Source: a virus
Lineage: Duplodnaviria; Heunggongvirae; Uroviricota; Caudoviricetes
Length of the DNA stretch: 42,581 nucleotides
Virus record (IMG/VR): IMGVR_UViG_3300045988_019953
Location: 1 to 42,581 of that record
Reading direction: 5' to 3' (one strand)
Shown here piece by piece: positions 814 to 42,581 of the stretch (position 1 is the first letter of the stretch; the number at the start of each line of letters is the position of its first letter). Below the pieces are notes generated by a model, which made no database searches, was not told the DNA's origin, and worked only from the letters and a program-made list of their open reading frames with translations. Position numbers and translations under genes: made by a program.

Positions 814-963
814 TTATTTATATTTAACGGTTTTAACTAACTGGCCTGTTGCTTTGTCGAAGAAGCCAACACGATTGTTGCTTACGCGATAGCGTGCGGT
901 TTCTTTAGCCCCAAATGCTATATCAAGGCCTAACAGAATCTTTGCTTTGCGGTTGTTAGTCAT
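814..963 (-). CDS. Small hypothetical protein (49 aa, below track threshold)
   Basis: ATG at 961-963 preceded by GAGGAGAG; stop at 814-816; first gene after leftward promoter. Confidence 0.45.
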   Translation of the reverse strand: MTNNRKAKILLGLDIAFGAKETARYRVSNNRVGFFDKATGQLVKTVKYK

Positions 964-995
964 TTTGTTTCTCTCCTCTTGTTTGGTATGGGCTA

Positions 996-1058
996 ACTAT
1001 AATAGCTAACTATTCATGATGTCAATGGGCTTTTCTAAAATAATTAATATGGTACTAT
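996..1058. promoter_or_regulatory. Divergent promoter region: leftward TTGACA-18-TATAGT and rightward -10 TACTAT, with dyad AATAG-N4-CTATT at 1001-1014
   Basis: Hexamers read in sequence; sits between divergent gene starts at 963 (minus) and 1090 (plus). Confidence 0.5.
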
Positions 1059-1089
1059 TCACATATCGACTAACTAAGGAGTAATTGAC

Positions 1090-1305
1090 ATGCAACCATC
1101 TGAACTAGGCATCCGTGTAGAACAACGCCGTAAAGAACTCGGCATCTCCCAGCGCCGTCTGGCTGTTCTGACTGGCGTTTCCCAGGGCGCGATTAACCAG
1201 CTGGCACTTGGGGTAACTCAGGACGTCCGACCGGCGACGCTGTTTAAACTGGCGGAAGTGCTGCAAGTAGACGCCAAGTGGCTGGCGTTCGGTGAAGGGG
1301 CTTAA
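1090..1305 (+). CDS. XRE/Cro-like helix-turn-helix transcriptional regulator
   Basis: 71 aa; segment ELGISQRRLAVLTGVSQGAINQL matches the classic XRE HTH pattern; SD AAGGAG upstream. Confidence 0.8.
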   Translation: MQPSELGIRVEQRRKELGISQRRLAVLTGVSQGAINQLALGVTQDVRPATLFKLAEVLQVDAKWLAFGEGA

Positions 1306-1322: not shown

Positions 1323-3563
1323 CTATTCTAAATCTTCCTCTGTCACTGTCAGCATTTCATTCGGTTCGTATATTGTCTTCGGTCTTAATCTGTCACCCAT
1401 CTTTTCCGGTATCCGGTAGGTGCCCGGTATAACTTCACCGTTAACATCGCACCCTAGCATCAACTCACCGTCTTTCAGCATCTTCTCGAGATGATGGTTG
1501 GTGATGGCGTGGTCGCCAGAATTCGCCACTATCTGCCGTTGTGTAAAACCTCGTCCGGTGTCGTCTGACTGTTGCAGGTCTTCCAGCGCGGCAAGTATTG
1601 ATTCCTTACGCCCTTCATCCTTTCCACGTTTTACGGCATTCTTTACGTTTTCTTTACCTTCTTTCGTCAGCCCTTCTTCCCGCTCTTTCTCCTCGTCAGT
1701 TTTGAACGGCTCGAAGCCCCACGGCATTAACACAAGTGCCTTATGCGGCTCCGGCAGGTCCAGGTTTACGATTGTGCCGTATTTCTCTGTGCTACCGAGG
1801 AACTCAACCGCACGGTACTCTTTCGGTGGTGGCGCTTCACGGAACTGTACCGACTCCAGCACCATGCCAACCGTCTTCTGTTGGGGCCCGTGCTTAAATT
1901 TAGAGTGGTATACGTTTATCTGACGGTCGGTTGCACGCTCAATGGTCAGTTCCACGTCGACGCCCGCATACAAAGCCCCGCTGCCACGGGCTTTCTTTCC
2001 ACCCTTCGGCGTATGGTGGACAACACCTACCGCGGCTTTAGTCGCATCGCGCACTTCTTTCAGGATGGCGATAACTTTACCCATACCTATTGCCGTTGAT
2101 GAACTGTTCTCGTCGAACTTATCAATAGTCAACGCCAGGGTCTGATTAAGGGTGTCGAACGCAACCATGCCGATTGGCTCGTCGCCAGCAGTTTCGCGCA
2201 TTAACTTAATCAGGCTTTTAAGTTTGCCGACTTCGCCCATATCGATGACATGTACATAATCTTTACCTTCCCAACCGTATTTAGCCGCGAGCGCGTCAAT
2301 ACGTGTACGTGTGGCTGCACCGCCTTCACCATCAATATAGAAGTGGTGGCAACGCTGGGTGTCTGCCCCTGCGAAGCGATAACCAGCGGCGCTGAGATAC
2401 ATCATCCCCAGCGTATAGAACGATTTGTACGTGCCAGATTCCCCGACGATATCCCAGATACAATCCGACGGCATATACCCCTCAACGACGAAATCAGCCT
2501 TTACCGGCTCCGGTAACTCGTCCTCCTCTGAGTCTTCGTTATCTTCCAGGTCGTCGAGGCTGCATGAAACAGATTCACGTGCACCCCAGCCGATTGCCTC
2601 AGCGACTTCACTGAACGGCAGCCCTGTAGCATCACACGCGTATTTCCACACCTCTTTCGGCGACATGCCTTCGGTTGCCATGATGTCAGTGTCGTGAATC
2701 ATGGTTACGTTCGGCGCTTCGTAGCCCTCGCGCGGGAAGCATAGCAGGAAGTCATCCGGGCGCGGCGTCGGGTCGCTGTAGTTCTCGGCGTGTTCTGGTG
2801 TAGCAGGCATCTTCAGGCCGCGGGGCGTCATGACGCCGCCGTACTCGAATGCCAGCGCTTCGAACGCGTCAGTAAACGCTGTGCGCAGTTCTTCCGGTAT
2901 CTGGTAATCCGATGCGCTGCTCACCTCGTAATCCGGTATGCCTTCCAGTAGCTCACCCGGGTCAAGCAGGTCATTGCGGCGCGACCAGATAACCCGAGAG
3001 CCAACTGGCGGCAGGTACATCGGCTGCGACAGAGTGAATCCGCTGCGGTCCGCGCCCATGCCTTTGAAGAAGTGCTCCAGCAGTCCATGACGAACACGGA
3101 TGATGTTACCCCCTTCAACCGGACGGGCCAGCGGCATGACTACACGAAAGCGCGGTGACTCATCTGTATGTGACGCCGTGGTATAGAGGCACATCGCCTG
3201 GCGGCTGCGCTTAACCAGGCGCACAGCTTCCTGATACTCTTCCGGCGTCGCACTGTCGAAGTCCAGATACGCCAGCGACGATTTGCTTACAGACGCGTCG
3301 CAGCGGTAGAAGAAGCCTTTACGCGCTTGCTTAAAGTCACCGGTTTCCGGGTCTTTTACGGTGCTGTGTGCGGAGTCACACGCGGCGGTGATGTAGCCCG
3401 GCGCGGTCTTCGGGTTAATTCCGTCACGAACGGCATCGAGCGGCTGGATTAACTCTTTCAGGTCGTCCAGTGTTGCCGTGTGAGTGGTTCTGACGTTTAT
3501 ATCCTTTTTCTCTGCTCGCGAGTTGCGACGTGACCACGAGTAGGATAAAATTACATCGGACAT
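1323..3563 (-). CDS. Replication protein: N-terminal primase-like region fused to C-terminal RecA-like P-loop ATPase (primase/helicase)
   Basis: 746 aa; Walker A-like GESGTYKS and downstream VVHHTPKGG typical of RepA/DnaB-like ATPases; N-terminal domain assignment is inference. Confidence 0.55.
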   Translation of the reverse strand: MSDVILSYSWSRRNSRAEKKDINVRTTHTATLDDLKELIQPLDAVRDGINPKTAPGYITAACDSAHSTVKDPETGDFKQARKGFFYRCDASVSKSSLAYLDFDSATPEEYQEAVRLVKRSRQAMCLYTTASHTDESPRFRVVMPLARPVEGGNIIRVRHGLLEHFFKGMGADRSGFTLSQPMYLPPVGSRVIWSRRNDLLDPGELLEGIPDYEVSSASDYQIPEELRTAFTDAFEALAFEYGGVMTPRGLKMPATPEHAENYSDPTPRPDDFLLCFPREGYEAPNVTMIHDTDIMATEGMSPKEVWKYACDATGLPFSEVAEAIGWGARESVSCSLDDLEDNEDSEEDELPEPVKADFVVEGYMPSDCIWDIVGESGTYKSFYTLGMMYLSAAGYRFAGADTQRCHHFYIDGEGGAATRTRIDALAAKYGWEGKDYVHVIDMGEVGKLKSLIKLMRETAGDEPIGMVAFDTLNQTLALTIDKFDENSSSTAIGMGKVIAILKEVRDATKAAVGVVHHTPKGGKKARGSGALYAGVDVELTIERATDRQINVYHSKFKHGPQQKTVGMVLESVQFREAPPPKEYRAVEFLGSTEKYGTIVNLDLPEPHKALVLMPWGFEPFKTDEEKEREEGLTKEGKENVKNAVKRGKDEGRKESILAALEDLQQSDDTGRGFTQRQIVANSGDHAITNHHLEKMLKDGELMLGCDVNGEVIPGTYRIPEKMGDRLRPKTIYEPNEMLTVTEEDLE

Positions 3564-3623: not shown

Positions 3624-4073
3624 TTATTCGGCGTTTGGTACTGCAAGAGCATACACGCCATCCAGCACCTTAATCAACAAACCTTTTTTACAAAGTCCAC
3701 GCATGGCGGTACAGACAGCACCAAGATTAGTGACATCCTCTTTTACCAAGGCATATACCGCACTAGGCGTAAAACGTTGCCCTTGCTGTTCAAGACACTT
3801 CCCATAGACTAGTTTTTGTAACTCCGTGAGCCTGCCTTTCTCAGGCAAAGGAACCGATATAACATCAAAAGGTTTTCCACCTTTAACCCAATACCGATAT
3901 TTACTCCCATCATAAACACGGTCTACTTCCCCTAAATAACCCAATAAGGTAACCGTCGCGCTAATCGGCCCGTCGAGTTCTATTGCCGATTTAATGTCAT
4001 GTAGTGACGCTCCCGGGCTCTCGGCTAATATCAGATTTAACGATTTCAGAAACTCGTCTAAGTATTTATGCAT
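3624..4073 (-). CDS. Hypothetical protein, possible C-terminal winged-helix
   Basis: 149-aa ORF; start overlaps the stop of the upstream small ORF (ATGCATAA). Confidence 0.5.
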   Translation of the reverse strand: MHKYLDEFLKSLNLILAESPGASLHDIKSAIELDGPISATVTLLGYLGEVDRVYDGSKYRYWVKGGKPFDVISVPLPEKGRLTELQKLVYGKCLEQQGQRFTPSAVYALVKEDVTNLGAVCTAMRGLCKKGLLIKVLDGVYALAVPNAE

Positions 4074-4209
4074 TCTTTTTAGCCTCTCTTAACTGTTTAC
4101 GGTAGGCATTGAAGCATTCACGGCAATAACTGCGTGTGCCTTTTCTGTCATATCGTTTAAGGAACGCACCCTCTTCTTTTTCTTTCCTACACATCTGGCA
4201 AATCTTCAT
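4066..4209 (-). CDS. Small zinc-ribbon protein (47 aa, CxxC...CxxC; below track threshold)
   Basis: ATG at 4207-4209 with GAGGAG 8 nt upstream; two CxxC pairs (CQMC, CREC); stop overlaps next gene start. Confidence 0.5.
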   Translation of the reverse strand: MKICQMCRKEKEEGAFLKRYDRKGTRSYCRECFNAYRKQLREAKKNA

Positions 4210-4227: not shown

Positions 4228-4256
4228 TTGAAGTACCCAAGATAATGGTACTTCAA
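4228..4256. promoter_or_regulatory. Perfect 10-bp inverted repeat TTGAAGTACC-N9-GGTACTTCAA (candidate operator)
   Basis: Arms at 4228-4237 and 4247-4256 are exact reverse complements; just upstream of the minus-strand replication operon. Confidence 0.5.
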
Positions 4257-4304: not shown

Positions 4305-4333
4305 TTGACTTTTCACTAAAAATGTGCTAAGCT
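4305..4333 (+). promoter_or_regulatory. Sigma70-like promoter TTGACT-17-TAAGCT driving conserved element copy A
   Basis: -35 at 4305-4310, -10 at 4328-4333; 28 of 29 positions identical to promoter at 15639-15667. Confidence 0.55.
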
Positions 4334-4339
4334 CCACCT

Positions 4340-4560
4340 GAGCTTGTGAAGTATGAACAAGCGACCGTGTCACGGCAGGAAACGGAGCGGGGCGTTAGCC
4401 CTGAGTGTAGTTTCGCTGACGCGTCCGGAAGGCCACTGGTCTATTGCAAAAATCCCCTAAGTTACATAAGTAACTAATTTTCCTTAAGTTTCTTAATGTG
4501 CTGTAGATTCGCAACCGTAAAAATGTAACGATTATTGGGCAGGCTTAAAGCCTGCCCTTT
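4340..4560 (+). ncRNA. Candidate structured small RNA, copy A
   Basis: Promoter-to-terminator unit with no ORF; about 115-nt core conserved with copy B, with two compensatory stem substitutions. Confidence 0.35.
4537..4560 (+). terminator. Rho-independent terminator (GGGCAGGCT-TAA-AGCCTGCCC plus TTT)
   Basis: 9-bp GC-rich stem followed by a short T tract. Confidence 0.55.
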
Positions 4561-4630: not shown

Positions 4631-4659
4631 TTGCACACCCCAATATAATAGGATACTAT
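4631..4659 (+). promoter_or_regulatory. Early promoter TTGCAC-17-TACTAT with dyad AATAG-N4-CTATT (4647-4660)
   Basis: Hexamers with 17-bp spacer; 23-mer nearly identical to those at 15540 and 24940; conserved leader TCACTTATCGAAACGAG. Confidence 0.55.
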
Positions 4660-4693
4660 TCACTTATCGAAACGAGACTGAGGAGTGAGGGTT

Positions 4694-5858: not shown

Positions 5859-5887
5859 TTGCACACTAAGATAGAATAGGCTACTAT
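5859..5887 (+). promoter_or_regulatory. Early promoter TTGCAC-17-TACTAT with dyad AATAG-N4-CTATT (5875-5888)
   Basis: Same architecture as 4631-4659; followed by RBS GAGGAGAG and ATG at 5919. Confidence 0.5.
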
Positions 5888-5918
5888 TCATTTACACGAA
5901 CAAGAGGAGAGACAGAAG

Positions 5919-8291: not shown

Positions 8292-8313
8292 ATCTATTTT
8301 CTGTAATGACTAG

Positions 8314-8342
8314 TTGACTATTACCATTGACCCTATTATATT
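8314..8342 (+). promoter_or_regulatory. Promoter TTGACT-17-TATATT with leader similar to other early promoters
   Basis: Hexamers read in sequence; leader CCATCGACAACGAG resembles TTATCGAAACGAG. Confidence 0.4.
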
Positions 8343-15517: not shown

Positions 15518-15543
15518 ACACCCTCCTCGTTTCGATGTAATGA

Positions 15544-15572
15544 ATAGTACCCTATTATATTGGTGTCTGCAA
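15544..15572 (-). promoter_or_regulatory. Early-type promoter on minus strand (TTGCAG-17-TACTAT) with dyad AATAG-N4-CTATT (15543-15556)
   Basis: 23-mer identical to 24940-24962 and a 1-mismatch reverse complement of 4639-4661; leader matches early promoter leaders. Confidence 0.55.
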
Positions 15573-15638
15573 ACTATTTATTTACTTATTCCAGTTATTC
15601 CACTCAATCGTAAATGTTGGAATAAACTATTTGAATAG

Positions 15639-15667
15639 TTGACTTTTCACTAAAAATATGCTAAGCT
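15639..15667 (+). promoter_or_regulatory. Sigma70-like promoter TTGACT-17-TAAGCT driving conserved element copy B
   Basis: 28 of 29 positions identical to promoter at 4305-4333. Confidence 0.55.
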
Positions 15668-15673
15668 CCACCT

Positions 15674-15870
15674 GAGCTTGTGAAGTATGAACAAGCGACC
15701 GCGGCGCGGGCAGGTAACGGAGCGGGACGTAAGTCCTGAGTGTAGTTACGCTGACGCGTTCGGAAGGGCCATACTCTATTGCTTGTGTAAAAAGTAACTG
15801 ATTTACTGAGATTGCGCCGTTTCTATGTTTAAATGATAAGGACTAGCGCCCCGCTTTACGGCGGGGCTTT
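15674..15870 (+). ncRNA. Candidate structured small RNA, copy B
   Basis: Conserved core shared with 4340-4450, bounded by promoter and terminator; no ORF. Confidence 0.35.
15848..15870 (+). terminator. Rho-independent terminator (GCCCCGC-TTTACG-GCGGGGC plus TTT)
   Basis: 7-bp GC stem followed by a short T tract; ends copy B just before the Rz-like gene. Confidence 0.5.
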
Positions 15871-15891
15871 ACTTATCGAGAAAGGAGAAAC

Positions 15892-16278
15892 ATGAATCTT
15901 AAAGCAACTGTCGTAGCGGGAGCATGTTTCATCATCCTGGCTTACACACACGGCATCTACCAGTACCGCAGCGGCTGGGCCGAAGGCCGGGCTAATCTCG
16001 TTTCGCAGCAACAGCAGAAAGCACAGGCTGAGTTAGCGAAGAAAACACAACGGCAGCAGCAGGATGAATCGAAGGCAGCCGCCGCTGACAACGAAGGCAA
16101 GACGAAATCAGAGGTGATTACCCGTGAAGTCGTTAAGTACATCAAAACGCCTGGCCGCAGCGTGTGCACTTTCGATGATGCTCGCGTCCTGCTCAAGTCC
16201 CGCGCCGTCACAAATGCCAACTCCATCCCCGGATATGACGATGATGCAGCCGCCGTGCAAACTGGCCCCGCCAAGTAG
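15892..16278 (+). CDS. i-spanin (Rz-like)
   Basis: 128 aa; N-terminal TM (VVAGACFIILAY), Q-rich coiled coil, periplasmic C-terminus; contains an out-of-frame lipoprotein ORF. Confidence 0.7.
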   Translation: MNLKATVVAGACFIILAYTHGIYQYRSGWAEGRANLVSQQQQKAQAELAKKTQRQQQDESKAAAADNEGKTKSEVITREVVKYIKTPGRSVCTFDDARVLLKSRAVTNANSIPGYDDDAAAVQTGPAK

Positions 16279-23012: not shown

Positions 23013-23513
23013 CTATTTATAACCGTTGTTGAATGTTGTCAGCCCGTGGTTTATGTGGAATTTATTGGCTACGGACATGTAAATTCTTTCCGCGAAAGCG
23101 TCCTCTATTCTGTCAAATGTTTTACTAATCTGCTTACCGTTGACAACGGCATACGCTCTCCACTTAGTTTCTCCTTTCCGCGCCACGCCAGTAACTCCAG
23201 ATGTATTATCTTTGCGCCTTTTCACGTTAACCATGTTGTCCCTTCTTGATTTGCAGGACAGGTTTTCAATTCTGTCATCACATGTATCATGGTTAGTGTG
23301 GTCTATGACAAATCCTTTTGGAATCTTGCCGGAGAACATCTCGTACACCACCCTCGACCTTTTAAACTTACGGTTGCCGAACATGACGTACCAATAGCCG
23401 TTTTTACACAAACTCCCGGCAACATCCCCTACATTCACATCGTTACGGCGACATGATTTGACTTTCCAGTATAGGACGCCGTTTTTGTAGCTAAAAACCT
23501 CACTCCAGTCCAT
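23013..23513 (-). CDS. HNH homing endonuclease (HNH plus AP2-like region), copy 1 of 4
   Basis: Motif GFVIDHTNHDTCDDRIENL...NMVNVKRRKDNTSGVTGV shared with ORFs at 34358, 36269, 39992. Confidence 0.8.
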   Translation of the reverse strand: MDWSEVFSYKNGVLYWKVKSCRRNDVNVGDVAGSLCKNGYWYVMFGNRKFKRSRVVYEMFSGKIPKGFVIDHTNHDTCDDRIENLSCKSRRDNMVNVKRRKDNTSGVTGVARKGETKWRAYAVVNGKQISKTFDRIEDAFAERIYMSVANKFHINHGLTTFNNGYK

Positions 23514-24913: not shown

Positions 24914-24943
24914 TTTAAACCCCTTCATTGTTGGTGTAAGTGA

Positions 24944-34855: not shown

Positions 34856-36276
34856 TTTTTACCTCTGCGCTTCATGTACTCTAGTAATATGTCTTGTACT
34901 TGCTTTTTCTCGTCGGTACGAGCCGCAACTACCTCATCTAACGTATCTTTAGCAATAATCTTGTAGATAAAAACAGGGCGATTATACCCCGATTGCTTTT
35001 GACGCGTTGGACCTATACGCTCGACAACCTGCAAATAGTGCTCGAGGTTCCAGCCTTGCGAAATAAACGCCAGATGATGGCCGCCGTCCTGTAAATTCAA
35101 ACCATGACCGGCTGACGCAGGGTGAACGCACAAAATCTCGATTTCGCCACGGTTCCACGCCTCCATCTGCTTATTGCCCTTGGCGCCTTTGGCAAACGCC
35201 TGTGCTTGCGGGAATCGCTTAAGGATACGCTCCAGTTCGTGCTTGAACTGATAGGCCACCAGTAACGGCGCGCCCTGTAACTCCTCAACAATTGACTCAA
35301 GAGCATCCAGCTTCGTGTCATGCACTTTCTCCCAGTCTTTGGTTGCTTCGCCGTCTGGCCCCGATACATACACGGCACCGGATGCAATCTGCAAACACTT
35401 CGACGTCTTCGCCGCAGCGTTAGCCGCTTCAACTTCCCCGCTTTCCAGTTCCGCGAATAACTTCTCCTCCATATCGATGTACGTCTGACGCGCTTTCTTC
35501 GGCAGGTCGATTTCAACCGGTACGATAACGGGCGCTTCACAACCGAACCACTCAGCGGCATCAATCGTGAGACTAATGTCCTTCATCTTCTGGTGGATTT
35601 CATTATCTGCGCCAGGGCGTGCGTGATATTCGCGCGCCATAGCAGATTTTCCTTTCTGCACCGAGTTAAACCAGCGGTCGGTGAACGCTGTGTACGAAGA
35701 ACCGAGTCGCTCGCCCGCGTCGATAAACCAGTTCTGCCCCCACAAGTCCTTGAGGCCGTTTGGCGACGGTGTACCGGTCAGGTTGATGAAACGCTTAACC
35801 TTACCGAACGCCACTTTACTAAGCGCCTTTGCCCTCTTGCTGCCTCCCGAACGGCTACGGAATGACTTGAGCTTCGTGCTCTCATCGGCAACGATAGCCG
35901 TAAAAGGCCAGTCGTCTTTGCCGTAGTAGTCAATGAGCCACTCGATAACTTCGTAGTTGGTACACACCACGTTAGCGTCTGACTCCAGCGCCGAGATACG
36001 GCGCTTCTCCGAACCTGTTGCATCTACGACACTCAAACAAGGGAACCGCCATTTCTCTTGTTCAGATGGCCACGTGCCAGATGCAACGCGCAACGGGGCG
36101 AGGATTAACACGCGGTCCTCTTCCGTAAGCTGTCCGTTGCGAAACAGGCGGTTTAAAGTCCACAGGACGCTACCAGTCTTCCCGGCGCCCATGCTCGCCC
36201 AAATATTACAGCGATGATGTCGCAACATGAACGAGGTCATGAGCTTCTGGTACTCGCGCCTTTGAAACTTACTCAT
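34852..36276 (-). CDS. Superfamily 2 DEAD/DEAH-type DNA helicase
   Basis: Walker A SMGAGKTG, DEST box (IVADESTK), C-terminal helicase-type region. Confidence 0.8.
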   Translation of the reverse strand: MSKFQRREYQKLMTSFMLRHHRCNIWASMGAGKTGSVLWTLNRLFRNGQLTEEDRVLILAPLRVASGTWPSEQEKWRFPCLSVVDATGSEKRRISALESDANVVCTNYEVIEWLIDYYGKDDWPFTAIVADESTKLKSFRSRSGGSKRAKALSKVAFGKVKRFINLTGTPSPNGLKDLWGQNWFIDAGERLGSSYTAFTDRWFNSVQKGKSAMAREYHARPGADNEIHQKMKDISLTIDAAEWFGCEAPVIVPVEIDLPKKARQTYIDMEEKLFAELESGEVEAANAAAKTSKCLQIASGAVYVSGPDGEATKDWEKVHDTKLDALESIVEELQGAPLLVAYQFKHELERILKRFPQAQAFAKGAKGNKQMEAWNRGEIEILCVHPASAGHGLNLQDGGHHLAFISQGWNLEHYLQVVERIGPTRQKQSGYNRPVFIYKIIAKDTLDEVVAARTDEKKQVQDILLEYMKRRGKK

Positions 36277-36763
36277 TGGGTCGTATTCCTTTGTCTAATG
36301 TTTCAAGTGCCGATACCCTGGCGGCTATTGCTTCTTCTCTTGTAGAGTAATAACCTAAATGCTTCTTTATTCCGTCAATAGTCATATACGCGGCCCATTT
36401 GTTATGCGACTCTCGCCACCTGACGCCAGGAAAGCCGCTTTTATTACTCGACCTAATTTTCTGCCATCCAGCTTTTGCGACGTTACCTTGTTGTGTCACT
36501 AACTGTAGATTTTCCAATCGGTTATCATCGTACACGCCATTTATGTGGTCAATTTGCATTCCTTCTGGAATCTTGCCGTTGTGCATCTCCCAGACTATTC
36601 TATGTGCTTGGTATATTTTACCTTTGAACTTAATACGCCTATGCCCCTTGTTTACCGAGCTTCCTGCTGTACTGCCTACCGATACTCTCGGCCTCGGTCT
36701 TACTCGCCAAATGAGGGCGCCGTTGTCGTAGGTGAATATCCTACCCCATGCTATTTCACACAT
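36269..36763 (-). CDS. HNH homing endonuclease, copy 3 of 4
   Basis: Motif MQIDHINGVYDDNRLENL plus KSGFPGVRW; RBS AAGGA. Confidence 0.8.
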   Translation of the reverse strand: MCEIAWGRIFTYDNGALIWRVRPRPRVSVGSTAGSSVNKGHRRIKFKGKIYQAHRIVWEMHNGKIPEGMQIDHINGVYDDNRLENLQLVTQQGNVAKAGWQKIRSSNKSGFPGVRWRESHNKWAAYMTIDGIKKHLGYYSTREEAIAARVSALETLDKGIRPNE

Positions 36764-36942
36764 AATACTAATTCCTTACGCCCGAACGCCGTAACGTTTC
36801 CGGTTACATCTTCGATAACCAGTTTACCGTTCGACTCGACGAACACCGTATCAACGGCAACAGGACGACGGGTCTTAACGTTGAAAATCATGTCGCCAGG
36901 TACGATGTCACGTGCTGGTTTGCGGTCGTATTCGTGTTTCAT
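36751..36942 (-). CDS. Hypothetical protein (63 aa)
   Basis: Track ORF with RBS AAGGA; first gene after minus-strand promoter at 36976-37004. Confidence 0.45.
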   Translation of the reverse strand: MKHEYDRKPARDIVPGDMIFNVKTRRPVAVDTVFVESNGKLVIEDVTGNVTAFGRKELVLCVK

Positions 36943-36972: not shown

Positions 36973-37272
36973 CTAACTATAATAGTTCGCTATTAGGTCG
37001 TCAACCTGTTTGAAAGACCCGACGACAAAAACATTTGCACCGCGTCTACGCATCCGCTCATGCTCACGTAACTGGTGCGGGTCTGGCTTCGTGTTTTCGT
37101 CTTTCTTAACCTCGACGAACCAGATGATGCCGCCGGGGAGAATTACCAGCAGGTCAGGGGCTCCCACTCTGTTTTCATATGACAATTTGCGTACGAGGCC
37201 CCCAAGGGCCTCGAATCGCTCTTTTGCGTATTTCTGTATTTTTCCTTCCGGGGTCATGGGCGCAGAATCCAA
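36973..37272 (-). CDS. VRR-NUC domain nuclease
   Basis: Motifs GAPDLLVILPGG and IWFVEVKKDE match the VRR-NUC pattern; probable TTG start after AGGTGGGG. Confidence 0.65.
   Translation of the reverse strand: MDSAPMTPEGKIQKYAKERFEALGGLVRKLSYENRVGAPDLLVILPGGIIWFVEVKKDENTKPDPHQLREHERMRRRGANVFVVGSFKQVDDLIANYYS
36976..37004 (-). promoter_or_regulatory. Leftward promoter TTGACG-17-TATAGT with dyad AATAG-N4-CTATT (36981-36994)
   Basis: Same architecture and spacer core as leftward promoters at 996-1025 and 41215-41243. Confidence 0.5.
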
Positions 37273-37811: not shown

Positions 37812-39999
37812 AACGTTTTAACTCCTGACCTTCTGCTACAAGAGGGAACCCCTCAGCCCATTCCGGTAATTCGCACATCAACCGCTCAAGTTCAGCCACC
37901 GTGTAATCCGCCGTGTCTGGAGTTTCACATACCAGTTCATCGTGTACCGAAAGCACGATGGGGTACCCGCCACCCTCAACATTAATCATCGCATATGCTA
38001 GTAAATCACGGCACAGTGCCTGGACCAGGTTTTCACAGGCTTTGCCGCCGTGTGTGTACAGGGTGGTCCATTGACGGGTTAACGGGTGTTCGCCTTGATA
38101 CTTTATTCGCACATTCGTGTTCACCCGTCCGTCTTCGTCTGTTTCCTTTGTCACACTAACGCCGATTCCCGGATACGAGAGGATACGGCCTGACGGCAAC
38201 TCCATACACAACCACCAACCTGGAACCTTCCTACCGGATGAATCAAATTCTACAGTACGCCATATGCGGATAGCCCTTTCCCCGTTCCTGCGCAAGTGTG
38301 CCCCTGCCCAAAATTCACGACCAGGATTACGCACAGCGGCTAAAATTCCATCTTTAAGGTCACGCCAGAACGCTACTGTTTCGGGGTGTGACTCGCGCCA
38401 CATACGCTTGATAGCATCACAAGTACGCCACACTTTCTTATCGAGGATATACGATGGTCGGTCATCCTTTTCACCCGGATGCGGCGGTCGCTTTGCTTCC
38501 TGGATACGCGCCCACTCATAGCCACGTGCGGTAGCAGCCCATATGTGGTCGGGGAATGTACCGTCCATTGTTTTTGCCATCTCAATAAGGTCGAGGCCTA
38601 AGTTTTTAGCGAACGTAACGAACGCTCCGACACCCCCCTCATAGCCGAGGCCAAGCTCGCAAGCCTTGCCTATCTGTCTGATTTCCTTGAAGTTTTTCTT
38701 AATGTCATTGGGGTCCATGCCGAACATCTTGCCTGCGGTTACGCAGTAAATATCCAGTCCGGCGCGGAACGTATCAAGCGCGGTTTCTTCGCCCGCCAGC
38801 CACGCTAAACCACGGCCTTCTACGTTAGAGTAATCGGCGACGACAAACTTATGCCCGGCTTCCGGGATAATGCAGCTACGGACCGTCGATGCCGTCAGCT
38901 TGGCTACATCAAAACGGCGATGCGCGCGGCCCTTAAGTAACGCTGAAATGCCTTTATCCAGTTCATCATCGTGATAGTAACCGCGCGCCAGGTTCTGCGG
39001 CTGGAAGCCTTTACCGGCCCATCGCAGAGTTCGTTTTGCCCCGCCGTACTGCAAGCAACCGCGACGGCGGTCGTCCGACGAGCGACCTAACAGAAGCGGG
39101 TTATATTTCGTTGACGCGGTAGACGCTGCCCCGAGTCGCATCTCGATAATCGTGCGGGCGTCGTCAGGTAAATCATCATCCGCCAACAGGTCGTTAAGCG
39201 TAGACTTCTGCGCGTTGTGGATGCGGTGCGCTGGCGCAAGTTCACGCAGAATCGGCAGAAAATCCTTACCAGTAAGCGAGCCGCCGTATTTGCGTTGGGC
39301 TTCTTCCTGTAACTGGGCCTTGTGATTCTCCACGGCTTCAATCGCGGCTTCCGCTAGTGCGACGTCAACCTTAAACCCGCGGTCGTTGATTAACTGGTCC
39401 AGTTCCAGTACACGGTCCTCGAACTCGGAGTTACCCCAACGCGGCAGCTTATGGAAGACTTCACGCATCGCAGTGATGTCGCTCACAGCGTACTTGATGA
39501 ACAGCGCCCACTCGTCCGGGTGCGTTTCGGCGGTGTAGCGGCGAATTTTGTAGTTCTTCGGTGTCGGTTTAGAGAAACGCTTAATCAGCGCCTTGCCGCG
39601 TTTATCTTTCGCGTTGTCCGCAGATACGCCCAGCACTTCACACAGCGCATCAAGCGAACCAGGCAGCGCGTGACGAAACGCCCAAATCATAGTATCAATA
39701 GTGTTACTTACCGGAATATCAAAACCCCAGCAGTGCTTCATGATGAGTCTGTCGAACATTAAAAAGTTATGGCCCACGATTTTCATACGTCCACGCATAA
39801 CATTACGGAGAGCCACACGGAGGCTTATCGGCATTACTGATTCGGAAGTGCAATCCCATACTTCTACAGGACCGTCATCAACAGCATACGTACAAATTAT
39901 GACCTCTGTCGTTGGGTGCTCCGCATACGCATACGACCCGACTTTCTTTAAGTCTGCTTCGGAGAATGTCTCGGTATCCAGGTACAATAAACTAGTCAT
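37801..39999 (-). CDS. DNA polymerase, family A, with N-terminal 3-5 exonuclease domain
   Basis: Exo motif LYLDTET; pol motif A DYSNVEGR; motif C SVHDELV; RBS AAGGA; 732 aa. Confidence 0.9.
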   Translation of the reverse strand: MTSLLYLDTETFSEADLKKVGSYAYAEHPTTEVIICTYAVDDGPVEVWDCTSESVMPISLRVALRNVMRGRMKIVGHNFLMFDRLIMKHCWGFDIPVSNTIDTMIWAFRHALPGSLDALCEVLGVSADNAKDKRGKALIKRFSKPTPKNYKIRRYTAETHPDEWALFIKYAVSDITAMREVFHKLPRWGNSEFEDRVLELDQLINDRGFKVDVALAEAAIEAVENHKAQLQEEAQRKYGGSLTGKDFLPILRELAPAHRIHNAQKSTLNDLLADDDLPDDARTIIEMRLGAASTASTKYNPLLLGRSSDDRRRGCLQYGGAKRTLRWAGKGFQPQNLARGYYHDDELDKGISALLKGRAHRRFDVAKLTASTVRSCIIPEAGHKFVVADYSNVEGRGLAWLAGEETALDTFRAGLDIYCVTAGKMFGMDPNDIKKNFKEIRQIGKACELGLGYEGGVGAFVTFAKNLGLDLIEMAKTMDGTFPDHIWAATARGYEWARIQEAKRPPHPGEKDDRPSYILDKKVWRTCDAIKRMWRESHPETVAFWRDLKDGILAAVRNPGREFWAGAHLRRNGERAIRIWRTVEFDSSGRKVPGWWLCMELPSGRILSYPGIGVSVTKETDEDGRVNTNVRIKYQGEHPLTRQWTTLYTHGGKACENLVQALCRDLLAYAMINVEGGGYPIVLSVHDELVCETPDTADYTVAELERLMCELPEWAEGFPLVAEGQELKRYAK

Positions 40000-40465
40000 G
40001 GCAATAAAATTCCTTATGCAGTTTTTCTCTTAATTTCTTTACAGCGCTTTCCGCTTCTTCAAGAGTTCCGTAGCTACCAGCGTTATAACTTTTGTAGTTA
40101 AAATGTACACGCCCATAAAATCGGTTGCCGTTTTTAACTACTCCCTTAACCCCCGTTCTAGCTCCCTTATTTTTAGCGTTTCGCACATTATCCGCTGTGG
40201 TTGCTTTCCTTAGGTTAGAAATCCTATTGTCTAACCTGTCACGGTTTATATGGTCAAGAGGCCCCTCAGGCCATTCGCCGTAGTCGAAAAACCAAGCAAG
40301 CCTGTGGGCCATATAGTATCTACCCATATAAGGTATGCGCCAGTATCCGCTACTATTAATACATCCCGCAATGTCTCCGGGTTTCCCTCGTCTGTATGTA
40401 GGTTGTATCCATGTGAATATTCCGGTTTCTCGGTTATAGCTAAGAAAATCTTTTATATGTTCCAT
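39992..40465 (-). CDS. HNH homing endonuclease, copy 4 of 4
   Basis: Motif LDHINRDRLDNRISNL plus ARTGVKGV; ATG 40463-40465 after GGAG preferred over track TTG 40489. Confidence 0.8.
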   Translation of the reverse strand: MEHIKDFLSYNRETGIFTWIQPTYRRGKPGDIAGCINSSGYWRIPYMGRYYMAHRLAWFFDYGEWPEGPLDHINRDRLDNRISNLRKATTADNVRNAKNKGARTGVKGVVKNGNRFYGRVHFNYKSYNAGSYGTLEEAESAVKKLREKLHKEFYCHD

Positions 40466-40476
40466 TCTGACTCCGG

Positions 40477-40500
40477 TAAAAAGGCCCAATGAAGGGCCTT
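40477..40500 (-). terminator. Terminator-like hairpin AAGGCCC-AATGAA-GGGCCTT with T tract on minus strand
   Basis: 7-bp stem; TTTT follows on minus strand; between SSB-like gene and HNH/polymerase. Confidence 0.5.
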
Positions 40501-41214: not shown

Positions 41215-41243
41215 ACTATAATAGCTTGCTATTCAGGTGTCAA
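41215..41243 (-). promoter_or_regulatory. Leftward promoter TTGACA-17-TATAGT with dyad AATAG-N4-CTATT (41220-41233)
   Basis: Hexamers and dyad read in sequence; between exonuclease stop and SSB-like start. Confidence 0.5.
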
Positions 41244-42489: not shown

Positions 42490-42504
42490 ACCCTGTTCTC
42501 CCAC

Positions 42505-42581
42505 TGGTCAATTAAATGCCGAGTTTTATGTTCGCAGTGCATAGCCCACCCATACATCGACTCGAAGACATAAAAGTCTGG
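42505..42581. repeat. Terminal direct repeat, right copy (identical to 1-77)
   Basis: Exact 77/77 identity with window start. Confidence 0.9.

Follow-up and report, generated by a model that had tools for sequence, protein, structure and literature searches.

The window analysed here is a stretch of 42,581 nucleotides of viral DNA (IMG/VR record IMGVR_UViG_3300045988_019953, positions 1 to 42,581). At 1090–1305 on the plus strand it carries a gene for a 71-residue helix-turn-helix (HTH) protein of the XRE family, related to the Cro protein of phage 434. We suggest that this protein is an orphan 434-type Cro that feeds back negatively on nearly all early and middle promoters, its own included, through a 14-bp dyad, AATAG-N4-CTATT, and we give this reading a probability of roughly 60%. 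The first-pass annotation had noted the dyad in the two promoters beside the gene and had proposed a transcriptional timing switch. That interpretation is broadly right but too local, as the dyad marks about ten promoters genome-wide. If the XRE protein binds the dyad, it is a global regulator rather than a two-promoter switch.

Allowing one mismatch, the dyad occurs at 10 sites in the genome, seven of them perfect, against an expectation of 1.05. The expectation comes from 100 dinucleotide-preserving shuffles, in which the maximum was five sites and none reached ten. The Poisson probability of the seven perfect copies is 1e-14, while sites with two mismatches occur at chance level. The dyad is the most over-represented A/T-rich palindrome in the window, in the related Kagunavirus phiSD1 (nine perfect copies) and in Jerseyvirus SETP13, where it has the form TAATAG-N4-CTATTA. 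All ten sites lie between genes or at a gene end, each of them inside a sigma70-like promoter, and all are syntenic in phiSD1 and SETP13. The imperfect copies are also the same in the three genomes, namely the one at the regulator's own promoter and two that overlap a -35 element.

The promoters form three classes. In class A, TTGC(A/G)N-N17-TACTAT, the dyad covers the -10 element. This class contains the sites at 4647–4660 (plus strand; TTGCAC at 4631–4636, N17, TACTAT at 4654–4659), which feeds the rightward early genes; at 5875–5888 (plus), upstream of 5919 and the genes beyond, lysis genes included; at 15543–15556 (minus), feeding 15517–15272; and at 24943–24956 (minus), feeding the Imm, exonuclease and HNH genes. 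The regulator's own operator, O2, belongs here too, without a -35. In class L, TTGAC(A/G)-N17/18-TATAGT, the dyad lies in the spacer. The members are the leftward promoter P_L next to the XRE gene, with its operator O1, and two more minus-strand promoters. The first has its operator at 41220–41233 (TTGACA-N17-TATAGT, 41243–41215) and feeds a single-stranded DNA-binding protein (SSB)-like gene and DNA polymerase; the second has it at 36981–36994 (TTGACG-N17-TATAGT, 37004–36976) and feeds a 63-residue protein, an HNH endonuclease and a helicase. In class C the -35 is TTGACT and is overlapped by a one-mismatch dyad. This is the case at 8309–8322 (plus; -35 at 8314–8319), downstream of the endolysin terminator, and at 15634–15647 (plus; -35 at 15639–15644), ahead of the spanin, scaffold and capsid genes.

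Since the register relative to the -10 differs by class and only the arms are conserved, the dyad is an independent element and not part of the -10. It is most simply explained as the binding site of a dimeric protein, placed to exclude RNA polymerase. The dyad, with its predicted binder, has the properties of a dispersed-operator phage regulon, as it is enriched, present in many promoters and conserved in relatives.

Two of the operators are found at the XRE gene itself, in a gene-free control region at 964–1089. The leftward and rightward promoters are indeed back to back there, as the first-pass annotation described, and both carry the dyad, but from sequence and promoter scan the region spans 126 bp and not about 90 bp. 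The predicted transcription starts of the two promoters are about 76 bp apart. P_L (996–1025, minus) consists of the -35 TTGACA at 1025–1020, an 18-nt spacer and the -10 TATAGT at 1001–996; it matches 11 of the 12 sigma70 consensus positions and is the sole strong leftward promoter in the scan. Behind it, at -59 to -38, is a UP-element-like A/T tract (1028–1049, minus; TATTAATTATTTTAGAAAAGCC on the minus strand) that agrees with 12 of 14 UP consensus positions, in register. The consensus used in scoring is reportedly that of Estrem et al. 1998, and the score of this tract is equalled by only about 1e-5 of the 22-mers in the genome. Having both a consensus -35 and a UP element, P_L looks like the strongest promoter of the phage.

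The promoter of the XRE gene, P_R (1050–1058, plus), reads as an extended -10, with TG at 1050–1051 and TACTAT at 1053–1058, and is conserved in 36 loci. It is the single plausible rightward promoter in the region, and its AATAnGnTACTATTCA is found again in the type-A promoters at 4647 and 5875. P_R has no recognisable -35, because the DNA at the expected position is the UP element of P_L. It is probably an intrinsically weak promoter that would compete with P_L for polymerase. The two operators, which are all that the region contains, are 45 bp apart, centre to centre. O1 (1001–1014; AATAG-CTAA-CTATT, AATAGCTAACTATT) is a perfect dyad in the P_L spacer and abuts the P_L -10, while O2 (1046–1059; AATAT-GGTA-CTATT, AATATGGTACTATT) has one mismatch and covers the -10 of P_R. 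The mismatch in O2, G to T, supplies the TG two bases 5' of the TACTAT hexamer and so gives the promoter its extended -10.

A ribosome-binding site, AAGGAG (1076–1081, plus), precedes the ATG of the XRE gene by 8 nt, and the transcript ends at an intrinsic terminator (1294–1314, plus) that is conserved in all 36 loci though the downstream gene varies. Read on the minus strand, the terminator hairpin has no U-tract, and leftward helicase-primase transcripts probably run antisense through the XRE gene.

Three other features of this region were considered and rejected. An 8-bp inverted repeat, ATGTCAAT/ATTGACAT (1019–1026 and 1084–1091), is attributed to chance, since both arms vary among relatives. 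The direct repeat GCTAACTAT has 13 matches in the genome against 9 expected; its third copy is not conserved (mostly CTGACTA), and its two real copies are explained by the dyad and the -10. A possible antisense promoter at 1352–1325 lies within the end of the helicase-primase coding sequence and is not conserved.

The Cro-like identity of the protein, proposed from the open reading frame (ORF), is borne out by sequence and fold. Pfam HTH_3 (PF01381) matches residues 11–65 with 48.2 bits against a cut-off of 23 (E=1.1e-12), which places the protein in the XRE family. In a phmmer search of solved structures the top match is 434 Cro, also of 71 residues (E=1.9e-6, residues 6–68), followed by the DNA-binding domain of 434 repressor and by P22 C2. 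The AlphaFold2 model (predicted local distance difference test score 77) has five helices, at residues 5–17, 21–28, 32–39, 48–57 and 62–66. Foldseek places 2cro first in the PDB, with template modelling scores of 0.74/0.80 and 38% identity over 65 aligned residues; it is followed by 1pra (434 repressor domain), 3cro (434 Cro-OR1 complex), restriction-modification controllers, SinR and HipB. With about 70 residues, a five-helix fold and no S24 or C-terminal dimerisation domain, it is a single-domain protein of the 434 Cro type.

Two other classes of small XRE proteins do not fit. The gene is monocistronic, with its own promoter and conserved terminator and with neighbours on the other strand, unlike a type II antitoxin gene (HigA/HipB), and no restriction or methylase gene is adjacent, as would be expected for a restriction-modification controller (C) protein.

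434-type Cro dimers read 14-bp dyads, and the XRE protein is likewise predicted to bind as a dimer to its 14-bp twofold-symmetric operator. The glutamine aligned to Gln28 of 434 Cro is invariant across all homologues compared, and position 1 of the operator AATAG-N4-CTATT is an A. The protein is the only member of a transcription-factor family in the genome, in line with its earlier description as the only clear HTH regulator. Among the 30 small ORFs scanned with Pfam and PHROG the other DNA-binding domains are those of four HNH-AP2 homing endonucleases.

Conservation was assessed in an alignment of 37 related sequences; the protein is encoded at 78–99% identity in 36 IMG/VR loci. About 115 bp of the intergenic DNA is nearly invariant, with no variation in 74 of the 115 columns. 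In O1 all ten arm bases are invariant, variation being confined to the spacer positions 1006, 1007 and 1009, and in O2 the same holds for 13 of 14 positions. Within the XRE gene, 64 of 71 second codon positions are invariant, as are 51 first positions and only 13 third positions. Residues 14–47, which contain both helices of the HTH, are essentially unchanged in variants of 77–100% identity; five positions there show a single substitution, in one sequence each, and the other differences are mainly at the two termini. Homologues are kept in about 500 phage records, and a wider homologue search returned only relatives of at least 77% identity.

From these observations, i.e., that the XRE protein is the only one from a transcription-factor family, that the dyad has 14 bp, that two copies are found at the protein's own gene and that the HTH core is frozen, we infer that it is the binder of the dyad. 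Its binding, the repression and the order in which the sites would be occupied are predictions from sequence.

A comparison between genera supports this assignment. The XRE proteins of Cornellviruses and Kagunaviruses are 39–42% identical, and AATAG-N4-CTATT is not found in the Cornellviruses examined (VSiP and vB_STM-ZS). These instead contain TATTA-N6-TAATA at seven and six sites when about one is expected; none of 100 shuffles reached these counts. A first palindrome scan of the Cornellviruses showed nothing obvious, and this motif was found by reading their promoters by eye and only then tested for enrichment. Its sites lie within promoters in the three ways described for the AATAG dyad and at the same positions, and it shows no enrichment in the window. 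Three small proteins peculiar to Kaguna- and Jerseyviruses are missing from the Cornellviruses; the 63-residue protein introduced above is absent from them. Thus, the dyad regulon persists without the 63-residue protein and the dyad has changed in sequence where the XRE protein has diverged, which supports the XRE protein as the binder.

Several observations weigh against this reading. Jerseyvirus and Kagunavirus XRE proteins are only 49% identical, yet the two genera have the operator in common, so that this comparison is uninformative on the binder. The covariation is not clean either, as the Jerseyvirus recognition helix (SQSLITH) is nearer to that of the Cornellviruses (TQSAISH) than to that of the Kagunaviruses (SQGAINQ). 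The control region of the Cornellvirus XRE gene holds only degenerate copies of the Cornellvirus dyad. In the one infection transcriptome found, RNA-seq of Kagunavirus K1B4, DNA polymerase and Imm, which lie downstream of operator-bearing promoters, are classed as "late", unlike what an early shut-off would give, although the time classes are coarse and strandedness is not stated (PMC12645636). The XRE homologue in that data set is gene 004 (216 bp, plus strand), which is transcribed and classed as "middle" (PMC12645636). It should not be confused with the "early HTH gene" of K1B4, gene 008, which we rejected as the homologue because it encodes a different HTH protein heading the leftward operon (PMC12645636). 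Finally, the 63-residue protein as binder would fit the distribution of the AATAG dyad too.

The last point leads to an alternative that we consider unlikely, in which another factor binds the dyad, be it the 63-residue protein, some further small protein of the phage or one of the host, and the XRE protein acts elsewhere, for example at operators of the host or of a resident prophage. The gene of the 63-residue protein (36751–36942, minus) immediately follows a promoter that bears an operator. All 448 Kaguna- and Jerseyvirus records contain it, with identities of at least 80%, and it is absent from the Cornellviruses, which do not have the AATAG dyad, and the different XRE recognition helices of Jersey- and Kagunaviruses despite their common operator would be accounted for. 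However, this conservation equals that of its neighbourhood, where the helicase is 95% and the resolvase 93% identical. The predicted structure of the protein, a small SH3/Tudor-like beta-barrel, matches no solved structure significantly, and neither a family nor relatives outside the Kaguna- and Jerseyviruses were found for it. Such a fold gives no support for DNA recognition, and we know of no precedent for an SH3/Tudor-like barrel that reads a 14-bp dyad. A dyad regulon without this protein, as in the Cornellviruses, and two operator copies at the XRE gene, the classic autoregulatory layout, point instead to the XRE protein. One GenBank record labels the 63-residue protein a "CooT family nickel-binding protein".

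Other small proteins were also considered as binders. The 149- and 47-residue proteins encoded at 3624–4209 are absent from phiSD1 and SETP13, which have the operators. A 76-residue protein looks by eye like the DUF3310 type; it has no Pfam match at E<=0.01 and matches only PHROGs of unknown function. The label "transcriptional regulator" of phiSD1 gp13 has no family support.

It is also conceivable, though distinctly unlikely in our judgement, that the XRE protein does bind the dyads but that the main benefit is to exclude superinfecting or co-infecting relatives by homo-immunity at the level of transcription, and not the timing of the phage's own genes. Operators are found in essentially all early promoters and are common to two genera, the phage also has an Imm-type superinfection gene, and the record of a 44-kb circular "plasmid" from a clinical E. 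coli isolate, which is a whole Kagunavirus genome, hints at carrier states. Homo-immunity would also be compatible with self-regulation. The weak, autoregulated promoter suggests a low steady-state level of the XRE protein, which counts against it.

It appears very improbable that no repressor is involved and that the dyad either reflects duplication and common ancestry of the promoters or is intrinsic to them, as a special -10 context that RNA polymerase reads by itself. In type-A promoters the CTAT of one arm does overlap the -10 hexamer, and in the Cornellviruses arm and -10 have both changed, the arm to TAATA and the coinciding -10 to TAATAT. But the dyad takes three registers, covering the -10, lying within the spacer or covering the -35. 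It has twofold symmetry, its arms are conserved and its centre is free to vary. The flanks differ between sites, and no contact of polymerase with the distal arm is known to us.

The nearest outside relatives of the XRE protein are cro proteins of lambdoid temperate phages and a CI partner is missing, but a functionless relic of a temperate ancestor is hardly tenable when the gene is kept in so many phage records, with second codon positions far more constant than third and a frozen HTH core, and when promoter, ribosome-binding site and terminator form a conserved cassette between two flanking genes that both vary.

Returning to the XRE protein as an orphan Cro, we suggest the following scheme. 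A dimer would bind the 14-bp operator AATAG-N4-CTATT. The very strong P_L, with its consensus -35 and UP element, would feed the recombination and replication genes, and the weak rightward extended -10 promoter would feed the regulator itself. Occupation of the perfect O1 would shut P_L, and the later occupation of the imperfect O2 would limit synthesis of the regulator, i.e., negative autoregulation. As the level of the regulator rises, the eight further promoters would be damped too, with the perfect sites filled first and the one-mismatch sites last. The effect would resemble that of lambda or 434 Cro in lytic growth, extended here to the entire genome of a virulent phage. The XRE protein thus probably damps most of the phage's transcription rather than acting as a local switch.

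A more ambitious version, which we hold tentatively and at somewhat less than even odds, is that a strictly virulent siphovirus runs almost its whole sigma70 programme through one 71-residue orphan Cro with operators of graded affinity set into the -10, spacer or -35 of about ten promoters, which forms a self-limiting governor, possibly provides immunity, and has diverged together with its operator between genera of the Guernseyvirinae. Perfect copies are placed at early and middle promoters, and imperfect ones at P_R and at the two sites that overlap a -35 ahead of late genes. The governor would arise from competition between the UP-driven P_L and the -35-less promoter of the regulator, and immunity against relatives could likewise act at the level of transcription.

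Among known systems, the closest is 434 Cro itself (2CRO, 3CRO), which has the same length of 71 residues, the same five-helix fold and a single domain without an S24 or oligomerisation domain. As in 434, the dyad proposed as operator spans 14 bp, its outer bases conserved and its centre free, and the gene and a leftward early operon are transcribed divergently. Damping early promoters during lytic growth, the role expected here, is that of lambdoid XRE-type Cro proteins in general. However, in 434 and the lambdoid phages cro stands opposite cI and acts at tripartite O_R and O_L, while here there is no cI and single operators lie over about ten promoters of a virulent phage. The operator is also different, AATAG-N4-CTATT rather than ACAA-N6-TTGT. 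Further, the Kaguna- and Jerseyvirus gene is a monocistronic island facing the helicase-primase gene, unlike lambdoid cro. The region is not a lambdoid immunity region of the cI/O_R/cro type, as the opposite gene encodes a 49-residue protein of unknown function, followed by recombination genes, and there are two operators and no S24 or CI family.

Repressors with operators dispersed over the phage genome are known from P1 (C1), mycobacteriophage L5 (gp71, with its "stoperators") and phiC31 (c). As in these, one small site is found at many promoters or intergenic positions and one protein would serve most of the genome. Those proteins, however, are maintenance repressors of temperate phages, while no lysogeny functions are found here. 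The L5 sites are moreover asymmetric and partly act as roadblocks inside operons, whereas every site described here overlaps core promoter elements. The controller proteins C.AhdI and C.BclI are also similar, being XRE proteins of about 70–80 residues, among the top structural matches, with dyad "C-boxes" at their own promoter and a circuit of delay and autoregulation. They differ in being confined to their own operon and in activating it before repressing it, and no restriction-modification genes are near the XRE gene.

The type of system is therefore known, from Cro and from the phage repressors with dispersed operators, while this instance and its regulon appear undescribed in the literature searched. 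There we found no description of these operators and no functional study of the protein; an earlier description may still exist.

Over its first 4.3 kb the window shares 88–93% identity with many Kagunavirus (Guernseyvirinae) phages of Escherichia, such as ST20 and phiSD1. The ends of the window, 1–78 and 42504–42581, are the same 78 bp repeated. The window is hence a complete, circularly permuted Kagunavirus genome of about 42.5 kb, obtained as a closed circular assembly with a short terminal duplication. Annotation transferred from phiSD1 by tblastn covers essentially all large ORFs, which correspond to replication, lysis or structural genes of annotated relatives. A long leftward cluster of replication and recombination genes (minus strand) runs from 4209 to 1323 and then from 963 across the junction to about 34236, and the XRE gene is the only plus-strand gene that breaks it. 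The part from 963 onwards contains genes for an exonuclease, an SSB-like protein, DNA polymerase, a resolvase and a helicase. The proposal that the regulator is divergent from the replication operon is right for this downstream half of the cluster. It overlooked the helicase-primase gene (1323–3563, minus), which is convergent with the XRE gene.

The first gene fed by P_L (814–963, minus; PHROG 1380) encodes the 49-residue protein, and this slot is variable among relatives, with at least five different left neighbours. The second (298–798, minus; phrog_3127) encodes a "13.88 kDa protein" and is followed by gp21 and, across the circular junction, a PD-(D/E)XK exonuclease. In relatives the leftward operon is headed by a gene for an excisionase-like HTH protein, while the window has a 47-residue zinc-ribbon protein at this position.

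Homology mapping of the large ORFs, together with PHROG and Pfam scans of 30 small ORFs, revealed no integrase, recombinase, partition protein, excisionase or CI/S24 protein in the window. This confirms the earlier remark that integrase, excisionase and CI are missing, and no overlooked integrase came to light. No prophage copy is present among 5,426 complete E. coli genomes, where the only type of match is a CRISPR spacer. The genome accordingly shows no temperate life-style module, be it integrase, recombinase, partition genes or prophage copies, and papers on the Kagunavirus group call these phages strictly lytic (PMC13216507, PMC12919940, PMC9409062), so the virulent life style first proposed stands.

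One E. coli blood isolate has a 44,086-bp circular "plasmid pC16EC0033-2" (CP088689.1) that is a whole Kagunavirus genome with unchanged gene order and an XRE protein 95.8% identical to ours. The sequenced culture may have been in a carrier state or pseudolysogenic, or the record may stem from contamination.

The first-pass annotation had also offered a remnant of a temperate ancestor. A functionless remnant is unlikely given the purifying selection and the invariant HTH core, but a temperate origin of the gene is plausible, based on its nearest outside homologue and on the operon order in Cornellviruses. The nearest homologue outside the subfamily in the phage collection is an annotated cro of the lambdoid Klebsiella phage RCIP0098 (45% identity), in a CI-cro-cII arrangement with 434-type ACAA-N6-TTGT operators in the adjoining intergenic region. 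In Cornellviruses the XRE gene heads a rightward operon, with the helicase-primase gene downstream on the same strand, like lambda cro. This implies that the helicase-primase segment was inverted either in the Kaguna-/Jerseyvirus or in the Cornellvirus lineage.

Although their gene regulation has yet to be characterised, Kaguna- and Jerseyviruses belong to the phages most often isolated from E. coli and Salmonella and are promoted for therapy, biocontrol and synthetic biology. The gene they carry under the name "transcriptional repressor" is at times flagged as a marker of lysogeny. If our reading is true, the gene would be explained as a regulator of the lytic cycle that carries no lysogeny risk, and the repressor, operators and promoters would make a compact toolkit for engineering these phages. 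Cells expressing the XRE protein should then resist Kaguna- and Jerseyviruses but not Cornellviruses. The system would also be a clean example of what remains of a lambdoid switch after the loss of CI.

Some further features of the promoters can be mentioned. The tail genes have a plus-strand extended -10 promoter (TGcTAGAAT, 24979–24987), and about 44 bp separate its predicted start from the centre of the dyad upstream of it, at 24943–24956; the arrangement at 24943–24994 is similar in phiSD1 and SETP13. This one dyad might repress transcription to the left and also influence that to the right. The likely leftward promoter of the operon from 4209 to the helicase-primase gene has no AATAG dyad. 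A perfect inverted repeat, GAAGTACC-N9-GGTACTTC (4230–4254), lies over it and could be an operator for another regulator.

A promoter of the form TTGACT-N17-TGnTAAGCT occurs twice on the plus strand, at 4305–4560 and 15639–15880, each time with about 135 nt of near-identical transcribed sequence that ends in a GC-rich hairpin and then TTT. The first copy is in a gene-free region of 475 bp before the rightward early genes and is conserved in ST20; the second precedes the spanin, scaffold and capsid genes and is conserved in phiSD1 and SETP13. RNAalifold on five sequences gives a structure of 42 pairs with three compensatory pairs, and Rfam has no match to it, nor to anything else in the whole window. 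By analogy with lambda 6S/tR' or HK022 put, the copies could be terminated leaders or cis-acting antitermination RNAs.

Four paralogous HNH homing endonuclease genes (phrog_99) lie within the leftward clusters, all on the minus strand, at 23013–23513, 34358–34855, 36269–36763 and 39992–40489, and two of them have AP2-domain matches below the Pfam cut-off.

The conserved cassette around the XRE gene, made up of P_L with its UP element, O1, O2, the weak P_R, the gene and its terminator, is about 350 bp long, and the slots on both sides of it, 814–963 after P_L and 1306–1322 beyond the terminator, hold different genes in different relatives. These slots look like hot spots of gene exchange that adjoin a very strong promoter. 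In E. coli 2017.09.02CC (NZ_AP025214.2), four of the nine spacers of a type I-E CRISPR array match the phage, with 0, 1, 1 and 4 mismatches; their targets in the window are 1022–1053, 1254–1285 (minus), 124–155 and 15927–15958. One spacer matches the conserved control region perfectly, with an ATG protospacer-adjacent motif at 1019–1021, and another targets the XRE gene. In relatives the region has few hypervariable positions, one of which is the first base of this motif, 1019 (A/T/G/C), and this variability could reflect escape through the motif.

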